Positions 16,501 through 19,500 of a DNA stretch of 64,000 nucleotides are shown one piece after another. This stretch comes from an uncultured Nitrospiraceae bacterium (GTDB lineage: Bacteria; Nitrospirota; Thermodesulfovibrionia; Thermodesulfovibrionales; Dissulfurispiraceae), in contig CAVSHF010000005.1 of the NCBI GenBank assembly GCA_963727805.1, positions 576,001 through 640,000 on the forward strand. The letters run 5' to 3'. Made by a program: the position numbers. Numbering within the stretch: position 1 is the first letter of the stretch; each line of letters opens with the position of its first letter.

Positions 16501-19500
16501 CCACGGCGACTGACAGAGTAGTTGCCCTCTCCGCTCTCAACAGGAGTTCAGAACAATCACGCCTCGGTATCCTTGAAGAAATCTATAGACAATGGCACCC
16601 CCACCTGAGCGGTTATGCCAATTATCTACGCATAGTTTCAGGCGGTACTTGCAATGATGTCTTTGAAATGATCGAGGTTGAGAGACGGCGGCCGACCTTC
16701 GATATTACCCAGCCGACCTGGGCGAGAGCGCTCTTCCTGACCATGGCGATGAACAATAAGATGGTCTGGACGGAAACAGGGATTGGATGGCTCACTAATA
16801 CGATCATTGAGTTGGCGCCAATCAACATGACGACCGCAAGCCGGCTGCTCAATACCTTCCAGCACGCCCGCAATCTGAAGTCTGCTCTCAGGGAAAGGGT
16901 TCTGGGATCCCTAGAGCTAATTATCGACAAGCTTACCGAAAGTAAACATCCGGCAATCCATCAGCAGGCAACGGCATATCTCGGATAACTCTCTCACAAG
17001 AGGCGTACACTTCTTGGATGGTAAACAAAGGGGAGCGAAGTCAGAAGCATTATAGCAAACAGCGCTATCAGAGGAGAACCTTGTCTGCCATCTCCTGAAC
17101 GCTTTCTGCAAAAAAGAAACTCACGTCTTTTTTTATCTTCGCAGGAAGGTTGTCAATATCCACCCTATTCTTAACAGGCAGAATTACTTCCTTGATCCCT
17201 GCTCTCCGTGCAGCAAGAATCTTTTCCCTTATGCCCCCGACAGGCAATATTCTGCCGCTGAGCGTAAGCTCGCCTGACACCGCTACATCTCGTCTGGCAG
17301 GCCTTCCCATAAGAAGGGAGATAAGCGCCATAGCGATCGTGACCCCGGCCGACGGGCCATCCTTTGGTATGGCTCCTGCGGGCACATGGATATGGATATC
17401 ATGATTTTCGAAGAAATCTTCAGGCAACTTGAATGTCCCCGCATTACTTCTTACATAACTCAGAGCGGCTTGAGCAGACTCGCGCATTACTGTACCAAGA
17501 GAGCCGGTGAGGATAAGCTCTTTGCTGCCCCACATCTTCGCTGCCTCCACAAATATAATATCACCACCTGTTTCAGTCCAAACCAAGCCAGTGGTGACTC
17601 CTATGCGGTTCTTGGCAGTCGCTGCCTCGAAATCATATTTTCTCGGGCCGAGGAATGATTCGACCACTTCCGGCGTGATCCGAAGAACTTCTGCAGGACA
17701 CTTTTTCAGGACTGTTTCTTTGGCTATCTTGCGGCACACGGTTGCGATCTGCCGTTCAAGACCCCTCAGTCCCGCTTCCTTTGTGTATCCCTGTATGATT
17801 TTCGCAACTGCTTCTGTATTAAATTTAGGTGGGCATTGAGACAGGCCTTGCTCGCGGACCTGTCTTGGAATGAGATACCGTTGGGCGATCATTTCCTTGT
17901 CCTCCTCGGTATATCCGGAGAACTCGATGACCTCGAGCCTGTCAAGAAGGGGTTCATAGATATTATCAGCTACATTAGCCGTCACAATAAACATCACACT
18001 TGAAAGATCAAAGGGGACATCGAGGTAGTGATCTATAAATGCGCAGTGTTGTTCGGGGTCAAGCACCTCCAGAAGAGCTGAAGCAGTGTCAACCCTGGAC
18101 TCGTTATGCATCTTGTCTATCTCATCGAGCATAAGGACAGGATTCGCAGACTGAGCACGTCGTATTTCTTCGATGATTCTTCCCGGCATGGCGCCAGCAT
18201 AAGTCCTGCGGTGACCCCTGATTTCCGCTTCATCGCGCACACCACCAAGAGATATCCTGGAGAACTGTCTTCCAAGGGCATCGGCGATACCGTGGCCCAA
18301 TGATGTCTTGCCCGTGCCCGGAGGGCCAGAAAAGCACAGGACAGACCCTTTCACAGACGTTTTTGAAGCGCTCGCTACAGCCTTCTTTACTGAAGCCCTG
18401 ACTTCGTCGAGATTAAAAGGTTTAGTGATGTAGTCGAATGCACCCTTCTTAGTGGCTTCCAGGGCTGACTCAATGGAAGCATAAGCTGTTATAATAATCA
18501 CTCTCGTATCCGGATAGCTGATCCTGATCTTTTCGAGCAATTCCATACCACCCATTTTGGCCATTCTCAGGTCCGTTAGAACGATATCAAAGCTGGACAC
18601 ATCAGCTTTCCTTATGGCCTCAGTGCCACTTGCAGCGGTTTCGACGGCATAATTCTCCCGCTTCAGGATGTGCTCAAGATTTTTGACCGCGACCTCTTCG
18701 TCGTCTACAATCAGGATGTTGGGCTGCTTGCCCTGGGACTTCAGCAGTGTTTTTACAGCGAGATGTTCGAGAATCCGTTCTTTGACATTACCGAGCCCGA
18801 AATGCCTTTCACTGAGAATCATTTCCGCCCGGCGCAGGTCGAGGTTGTCTTCGGTCTTTTTGTTCCAAGGTAGACTGACAAGGTATTCAATATAGGTAAG
18901 GCCTATTGAATATTCCGCCATCAGGGGGCTAATCCTGGAGATAGTCAGAAGTTCATTCTGAGCTATCTCCAGGACTTCGGTAGGCATACTCGCGGAGAAG
19001 ATCTTCTGTTTCAGGTCTTCTATTGCATCTATCTGGAGTTTATCGTCACCTTTCTTAAAAAAGCTCATCAATTACATTATTACATAAATGATGTCTTCAT
19101 GCCAGTGTCTTGCATCCTAATTATTTCTTAATTATTTCCTCAAGCCTGGGGCCTTAAGTTCTTTCCTCGGCCTTAACGAGGGAACGACACGCTCAAACTG
19201 CCGCGGCCTGTCTTCCTCGCGCATATATTCTCTTGCAGTCTCAAATTCACCTGCTTCGGCAAAAGTGATGGCGACGAATAAATTCTCGATCTTTTTGGTC
19301 AGCCCTTTCATAATGATCCTCCTTTTTACTCCTCTTAGTAAGGCCGGAGAGTTCTCTCCAGCTCCCAATTCCGTACTCGTTATTATATTTAATGCATTTC
19401 TCATGCCAGATCGTATCTCATTGAAAAACTAAGGCCACAGCTGACTCGCTAGATTGTAAGTACTTTCCTGATGATTCAAAATGAAACGCCGAAGGAACAC

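Follow-up and report, generated by a model that had tools for sequence, protein, structure and literature searches.

A DVU3303-type Lon protease with a receiver inserted in its AAA+ domain, and an Arg-rich tail that co-occurs with it

What would a Lon protease do with a phospho-receiver, and which proteins would it degrade in response to a signal? The question is raised by g03130, a 666-aa open frame on the minus strand at 17068–19068 of the window, that is the whole stretch of 64,000 nucleotides of an uncultured Nitrospiraceae genome that was analysed. A preliminary description had interpreted its product as a protease switched by a histidine kinase, with the receiver standing ahead of the AAA+ module in place of the substrate-binding N domain. 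The domain content underlying this interpretation was found again with the same coordinates: Pfam places Response_reg at residues 118–227, AAA at 244–384, Lon_lid at 406–456 and Lon_C at 464–665 and finds no match to LON_substr_bdg; furthermore, the cut-off of the NCBIfam lon model TIGR00763 is exceeded in two stretches (693.7 vs. 608.05 bits).

The position assigned to the receiver, on the other hand, has to be revised. Residues 7–116 align with residues 260–368 of the housekeeping Lon of the same genome (39% identity, E 7e-21) and residues 236–666 with its residues 362–790 (56%; housekeeping numbering is that of the stop-to-stop frame); likewise, E. coli Lon 249–342 corresponds to residues 14–107 and E. 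coli 345–766 to residues 237–660. Since the two Lon stretches that flank the receiver abut in both reference proteins, the receiver is, by these alignments, an insertion within the AAA+ domain between E. coli residues 342 and 345, and this two-stretch alignment rules out that it replaces the N domain. By the same comparison the N domain and the long helix, approximately 250 N-terminal residues, are deleted, and the segment ahead of the receiver, left unassigned up to residue 117 in the preliminary description, is Lon sequence over residues 1–113 (18730–19068, minus strand), comprising the three-helix segment and the first AAA+ helix. The alignments thus locate the insertion in the loop between this helix and the Walker A strand. 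In an AlphaFold monomer model (pLDDT 73.7, pTM 0.49; usable for secondary structure only) the last helix of the receiver (220–236) continues into the Walker A strand (243–247); Foldseek searches with this model returned only Lons, at an rmsd of 16–20 Å, and the position of the receiver on the ring is not fixed by it. The H-Y/F-G-L segment just ahead of the insert presumably contacts the adenine in Lon, in which case the insert would come to lie between two elements of the nucleotide site.

Both halves of this protein appear fit to work. The receiver (18388–18717, minus strand) possesses the acidic pair D122/D123, the phospho-accepting D166, T194 and K216. The AAA+ core (17917–18339, minus strand) has Walker A and B, pore tyrosine, sensor and arginine finger, roles that we take to be played by K254, D315/E316, Y290, N365 and R377, respectively, and the protease domain (17074–17679, minus strand) contains the S573/K616 dyad. 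In all 58 full-length rows of the family alignment D123, D166, K216, K254, Y290, D315, E316, N365, R377, R435, S573 and K616 are retained, the only receiver exceptions being one D122E and one T194S. The best 120 of 2582 matches (from 8000 scored candidates) all carry the receiver, AAA and Lon families, their receiver and catalytic residues being invariant or nearly so. The loop after Walker B (residues 320–328; 18085–18111, minus strand) reads H-N-E-S-R-V/A-D-T in g03130 and its 10 closest relatives instead of the G-Q-D-F-K-G-D-P/S of the family, a conserved sub-clade change in what is presumed to be the second pore loop.

How widespread is such a protein? The preliminary impression of a sporadic distribution (4 of 60 other Nitrospirota genomes) gives way to a wider one: full-span matches occur in 35 of 201 Nitrospirota genomes, the source genome included, with three more partial and one of the full-span matches (G191) containing two stops. 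Of 80 loci retrieved from the genome collection by a motif scan, 78 were analysed (54 with an insert and 24 ordinary Lons), and the insert-bearing ones belong to Desulfovibrionales, Desulfobacterales, Syntrophobacterales, Desulfomonilales, Desulfobulbales, Syntrophales and Nitrospirota. The distance from the motif to Walker A is 178–179 residues in 54/54 receiver-bearing loci (179 in g03130) as opposed to 52 in 24/24 ordinary Lons, and an N domain was found in none of the 54. In a FastTree phylogeny computed without the receiver columns a single branch with support 100 separates 59 insert-bearing rows from 73 ordinary Lon rows, showing that the family has a single origin as far as its sequences can tell. 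The idea that g03130 is an orphan decaying after relocation was discarded, the protein having one deviation at 195 conserved columns where the median is three. Degenerate relatives nevertheless exist: P0136, P0156 and P0166 retain the receiver, have a broken Walker A and end after the large AAA subdomain, and P0123, a single database protein, is a cut protease fused to a small peptide of the kind described below. Compared with the LonA proteins described by TIGR00763, with which it shares the three-helix segment, the AAA+ motifs, the lid and the Ser-Lys protease (core identity 55–57%), the family is distinguished by the missing N domain and long helix, by the 126–127-residue receiver insert and by family-specific residues such as T252, E301 and M512.

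Neither the family nor the idea of its gating is new: phospho-gating was proposed in 2011 for the DVU3303–3305 system of Desulfovibrio vulgaris, whose operons are induced in several stresses (PMC3333781), and the DVU3303–3305 regulon reappears in a table of PMC4641369. Gene order, gene sizes and the binding site indicate that g03130 belongs to this DVU3303-DVU3304-DVU3305 system. In both cases Lon and receiver are joined in one protein of similar size, shorter than an ordinary Lon (DVU3303 has 2109 nt and is annotated as a “truncation”; PMC10102598), and are accompanied by a histidine kinase and a sigma-54 regulator, adjacent in most relatives and 15 kb away here, and by the same enhancer palindrome. 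The target genes DVU3302–3298 match in order and size (180, 543, 294 and 1071 nt, then Usp; the 180 nt of DVU3302 are also given in PMC10102598), and the resulting five-gene operon, i.e., three small hypotheticals, a TauE-type gene and a Usp gene, recurs in loci of Nitrospirota and Desulfovibrionaceae with its gene order and sizes unchanged. Unlike in D. vulgaris, peptide and protease stand apart here as a two-gene unit, 15 kb away from the other genes and co-oriented instead of divergent. The proposed orthology rests on order, size and site and on Desulfovibrionaceae loci such as L262, L282 and L297; the published D. vulgaris promoter primer had no match in the genome collection, and when read by hand it lies in frame 60 nt inside DVU3303 and spells M-I-F-F-R-K, like the family start.

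In D. vulgaris the co-fitness of DVU3303, DVU3304 and DVU3305 exceeds 0.9, and loss of any of the three confers chlorate resistance, loss of the transporter DVU3299 chlorate sensitivity (PMC10102598). The opposite sign fits a negative arm, and the co-fitness could be partly polar. The accessible portions of PMC3333781, PMC10102598 and PMC4641369 give no insertion site, substrate or tail, nor did a literature search, mostly outside subscription journals, produce a paper on any of these; the gating idea, like the family 15 years old, has stayed a proposal because no substrate was known. What is new here is the corrected anatomy and a portable tail linked to the protease.

Which kinase would feed the receiver? 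In most relatives the receiver-Lon adjoins a HAMP kinase, a sigma-54 regulator and the transporter operon, the latter encoding in order a peptide of 55–60 aa, a Usp-fold protein that starts with the same helical motif as the peptide, an 83-aa two-helix membrane protein, the TauE transporter and a Usp. In the source genome, as in L009, the receiver-Lon has moved together with the peptide away from the rest of the locus, and kinase, regulator and operon genes are located at or shortly ahead of the left edge of the window, at a distance of 15 kb from the protease. The statement that the gene has no partner kinase therefore holds for its immediate neighbours and fails for the system as a whole: the 3′ end of the candidate cognate HAMP-HisKA-HATPase kinase (DVU3304-like, by Pfam on the L001 ortholog) occupies 1–354 (plus strand), its gene beginning ~1.1 kb before the window, and is followed at 347–1705 (plus strand, start codon approximate) by the DVU3305-like sigma-54 response regulator, assigned by orthology and receiver comparison. 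Among the 85 receiver matches in the genome, that of this regulator is closest to the Lon insert (53.5% identity), and the first helix of both contains K-N-L-E-H. Across loci the Lon inserts group with the receivers of the neighbouring sigma-54 regulators (support 92, in a grouping that is not starred) and the first helices of the two receivers co-vary locus by locus, which suggests that one kinase may feed both. A regulator-type receiver is found in 33 of 35 protease-bearing Nitrospirota genomes, and the regulator occurs in 26 genomes without the protease, so that the receiver-Lon is an accessory of the system. A transposase-like frame, presumably of IS4 type, lies at 9524–10729 (minus strand), between the regulator and the relocated protease unit.

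A second signalling-transport module at 23206–28544 comprises a dCache kinase (23590–25356), stand-alone receivers, a TauE gene and a 138-aa membrane protein. Its kinase and receivers were considered as partners and rejected, the receivers being 33–37% identical with unlike first helices; the receiver at 27676–28137 ends in the helical motif of the peptide, without the Arg tail. Next to it, at 22565–23209 (minus strand), is encoded a 214-aa protein without a Pfam match that weakly resembles kinase transmitter domains (NCBIfam AtoS, E 1e-10) and may be a phosphotransfer protein or a pseudo-kinase.

The peptide upstream of the protease has 59 aa (19132–19311, minus strand), is DVU3302-like and consists of a conserved helical core (residues 1–33), predicted as a helix-turn-helix hairpin, and an Arg-rich tail; searches of Pfam, NCBIfam, PDB sequences and the ESM Atlas assigned it to no named family. 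By its sequence it is preceded by an AGGAGG ribosome-binding site (19318–19323, minus strand) and by a sigma-54 −24/−12 promoter-like site, TGGC-N8-TGCA (19393–19408, minus strand), conforming to the consensus in Table S10 of PMC3333781. Farther upstream, at 19583–19597, lies a DVU3305-type enhancer palindrome, TTGC-N5-GCAA, which shares 14 of 15 bases with the published Thermodesulfovibrio yellowstonii site (PMC3333781). A strict pattern derived from these two sites occurs three times in the genome, twice at the peptide-Lon/transporter regulon, and TTGC-N5-GCAA is present within 500 bp upstream of 34 of 52 insert-bearing loci compared with 1 of 24 ordinary Lon loci; peptide-Lon unit and transporter operon share a regulon. 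Between peptide and protease (19069–19131) there is an imperfect sigma-54-like word, and no clear ribosome-binding site just ahead of the protease start. Divergent from this unit, and having the upstream region in common with it, is a phosphate butyryltransferase-like domain fused to a butyrate kinase (19806–22031, plus strand), followed by an ACT-domain protein. One DNA sequencing run carries the stretch as near-identical short pieces; RNA runs yield small shares from relatives only, as contigs, and show neither expression nor co-transcription.

What, then, could be the substrate? The candidate is the tail of the peptide, residues 34–59 (19135–19212, minus strand), which is Arg-rich, of the type R-x-x-hydrophobic-x-A or R-P/x-x-hydrophobic-x-A, and whose designation as a candidate degron or docking tag is based on co-occurrence only. 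Similar tails are found at the end of either the peptide or TauE's small membrane partner. A profile derived from 21 protease-linked peptides matches at full length in all 35 protease genomes and elsewhere mostly over the first 34–44 positions; given that the profile was built from protease-linked peptides, the tails were compared by direct reading. A threshold chosen after seeing the tails (at least four Arg and a net charge of +3 behind the core) is reached in 35/35 protease genomes (34 with a full-span protease plus G149, G101 being left out) vs. 1/19 Nitrospirota without an intact protease, kinship being ignored. The one tailed exception is G164, an assembly of 390 contigs with 88% completeness in which no insert-bearing Lon turned up. 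G188 has a protease pseudogene and a decayed tail; G184, without the protease, likewise has a decayed tail, ending in E-L-W-A-D; in G013 and G196 the locus is laid out as in their congeners G104 and G080, except that the protease is missing and the tails are unrelated.

Peptides outside Nitrospirota end in the same way, and of the 26 protease loci with no peptide in view 15 carry a fusion of Usp and membrane protein that ends in an Arg tail, nine of these with the longer variant R-K-R-P-R-x-Y. In the Nitrospirota locus L272 it is the membrane protein that bears the tail, many loci have it on two different proteins at once, and none of 19 membrane partners in protease-less Nitrospirota loci is tailed or extended. 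A stricter rule, tuned on tails already seen, recovers 29/35 protease vs. 1/23 other Nitrospirota and 23/36 protease loci of other groups, missing 6/35 and 13/36, respectively, with a background of 18 in 2984 genes. The peptide has no match in four Desulfobacterales protease genomes nor in G193, whose protease gene is partial and at a contig end. In the four Desulfobacterales loci (L093–L096) the protease is paired with a citrate-type CitMHS/TrkA_C transporter (Pfam on three) and a neighbouring protein has a different conserved end, R/G-L-C/F-V-Y-S/A in 4/4 loci, possibly a second type of tag. Two more tailed copies of the peptide lie outside the window (C5:37348–37527, minus strand; C3:100462–100641, plus strand), away from any kinase, TauE or Lon and each behind a sigma-54-like site, and two tandem copies of the helical motif occur in small proteins at L197:4309–4605, L241:3–221 and L319:3510–3806.

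With the strict rule fixed, a fresh sample was drawn through the membrane-protein motif (80 loci, 79 usable). Loci with the protease in view passed it in 17 of 36 cases and those without in 3 of 43, kinship again being ignored; for records not met earlier that reach at least 5 kb upstream the figures are 5/12 and 1/25. In the table of this sample the membrane protein is extended by at least 25 residues in 32/36 protease loci vs. 3/43 others, the remaining four of the 36 being Nitrospirota with a tailed peptide. A whole-genome check of 10 loci with some tail and five tailless ones, picked by eye, revealed a full-span protease elsewhere in the genome for all three exceptions to the strict rule (L381, L409 and L437; L396 is in the same genome as L381) and for all three long extensions (L427, L437 and L447), as well as for L419; the genomes of the weak-tail loci L378, L408 and L432 yielded no full-span protease, nor did those of the tailless controls (0/5). 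The tail had predicted an unseen protease in six genomes.

These data show that tail and protease co-occur; related genomes are not independent, though, and the counts must be read with this in mind. In a tree built from three genes in 44 genomes, the paired tail-protease trait changes seven times, at least four of these changes being forced; four independent pairs give p 0.125, the discordant G164 not having been placed, and a regulator-only tree offers nine pairs on the best tree and two on supported branches.

How could a Lon lacking its N domain find a substrate? The N domain of ordinary Lon catches unfolded proteins and hydrophobic C-terminal tags (PMC8087443, PMC11882793), whereas the Meiothermus Lon AAAP fragment 242–793, whose cut at residue 242 is nearly the natural boundary of the receiver-Lon, retains both ATPase and peptidase activity and digests disordered casein, though not protein unfolded by heat (PMC8087443). 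Its natural counterpart should therefore see only exposed disordered ends, a description that the tail fits. The explanation that we favour, and hold to be evenly balanced between right and wrong, is that a kinase-gated, N-domainless Lon of the DVU3303 type degrades tail-tagged small proteins of its own transporter regulon. The membrane kinase would phosphorylate two look-alike receivers, those of the sigma-54 activator and of the Lon insert; the activator would drive the peptide-Lon operon and the TauE transporter/Usp operon; the protease, deprived of N domain and long helix, would pass over misfolded proteins and act only on disordered ends that are exposed, and its clients would be the carriers of the Arg-rich C-terminal tail, either the 59-aa peptide or TauE's two-helix membrane partner; the phosphorylated insert would switch the motor, through either ring assembly or ATPase activity, and removal of the tagged proteins would turn down or reset the transporter output, which would supply the negative arm suggested by the D. 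vulgaris phenotypes. Of the kinase-switched protease originally envisaged, an active Lon, a phosphorylatable receiver and a kinase input are well supported by conservation and context, while the gating and its sign are what we infer. A wider version, in which the module is self-contained, has its own portable basic degron code, the tag having moved in evolution between a peptide that stands alone and the membrane protein that accompanies the TauE anion transporter, and dismantles the TauE assembly upon phosphorylation, is tentative and in our judgment falls somewhat short of an even chance. A complex prediction for protease and peptide scored 0.00 in two runs, which counts neither for nor against binding.

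Regulated degradation as a read-out of a two-component signal is known from RssB with ClpXP, and CpdR is a receiver adaptor for phosphorylation-controlled proteolysis by ClpXP; in these cases the receiver is a separate adaptor, whereas here it lies inside the ATPase of the protease. As with LarA, HspQ and SulA, a C-terminal tag on a small protein would engage Lon; however, it is the N domain that recognizes their tags, which are hydrophobic or aromatic, and the known C-terminal Lon degrons need that domain, whereas the tail described here is basic and its protease has none (PMC11882793, PMC8087443). The most serious competitor of the degron reading, unlikely as we consider it, is that the tail is a docking or activating motif and the peptide or membrane partner an adaptor, an allosteric activator or a membrane anchor that replaces the N domain and brings other substrates, such as the TauE and Usp proteins, the kinase or the sigma-54 regulator. 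The same co-occurrence data would be expected, the peptide is a two-part one whose core is also found, tailless, on stand-alone receivers and Usp-like proteins, as might be expected of a client-binding module, peptide and protease have relocated together (source genome and L009) and P0123 fuses the motor to the peptide; moreover, C-terminal tags are the means by which LarA and HspQ activate ordinary Lon (PMC11882793). Yet LarA works via the N domain, which is absent here (PMC11882793), and in many loci the tail is on two different proteins, as several substrates would have it.

Distinctly less probable is that the peptide is an Sda-like kinase inhibitor bearing a degron, which the phosphorylated protease would remove with positive feedback on the kinase. 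The predicted helix-turn-helix of the core recalls Sda, a 46-aa helical hairpin binding the DHp domain of KinA (PMC10730256), and the equal phenotypes of DVU3303, 3304 and 3305 would be explained; however, no sequence link ties the peptide to Sda or to a protein of known structure (best E 0.45), kinases of this type are found without the motif in L208, L242–L244, L252 and Desulfobacterales loci, the motif tracks TauE modules more closely than the kinase, and the tail on the membrane partner is left unexplained. We give just as little credit to the 2011 reading of a general stress protease gated by phosphorylation, with tails linked to it by shared descent only: the induction of the operons in several stresses (PMC3333781) and the non-significant independent-pair test speak for it, but the proteins that bear the tail are not homologous, an unseen protease was predicted from it in six genomes, and a Lon without N domain is poor at damaged proteins (PMC8087443). 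The slightest chance of all is that the receiver is a phosphate sink or passenger on a constitutive or unimportant protease, as P0136, P0156 and P0166, with receiver, broken Walker A and no protease domain, might suggest, for insert length and position are fixed right before the Walker A strand and the protease residues are invariant in 58/58 rows.

If the favoured explanation, degradation of tail-tagged regulon proteins by a kinase-gated Lon, were true, a receiver would be at work within the motor of an AAA+ protease, Lon would have a natural basic degron that does not depend on the N domain, and synthetic biology would gain a compact degradation pair switchable by phosphorylation; the tail offers a concrete substrate and tag for D. 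vulgaris, an organism with mutant fitness data.
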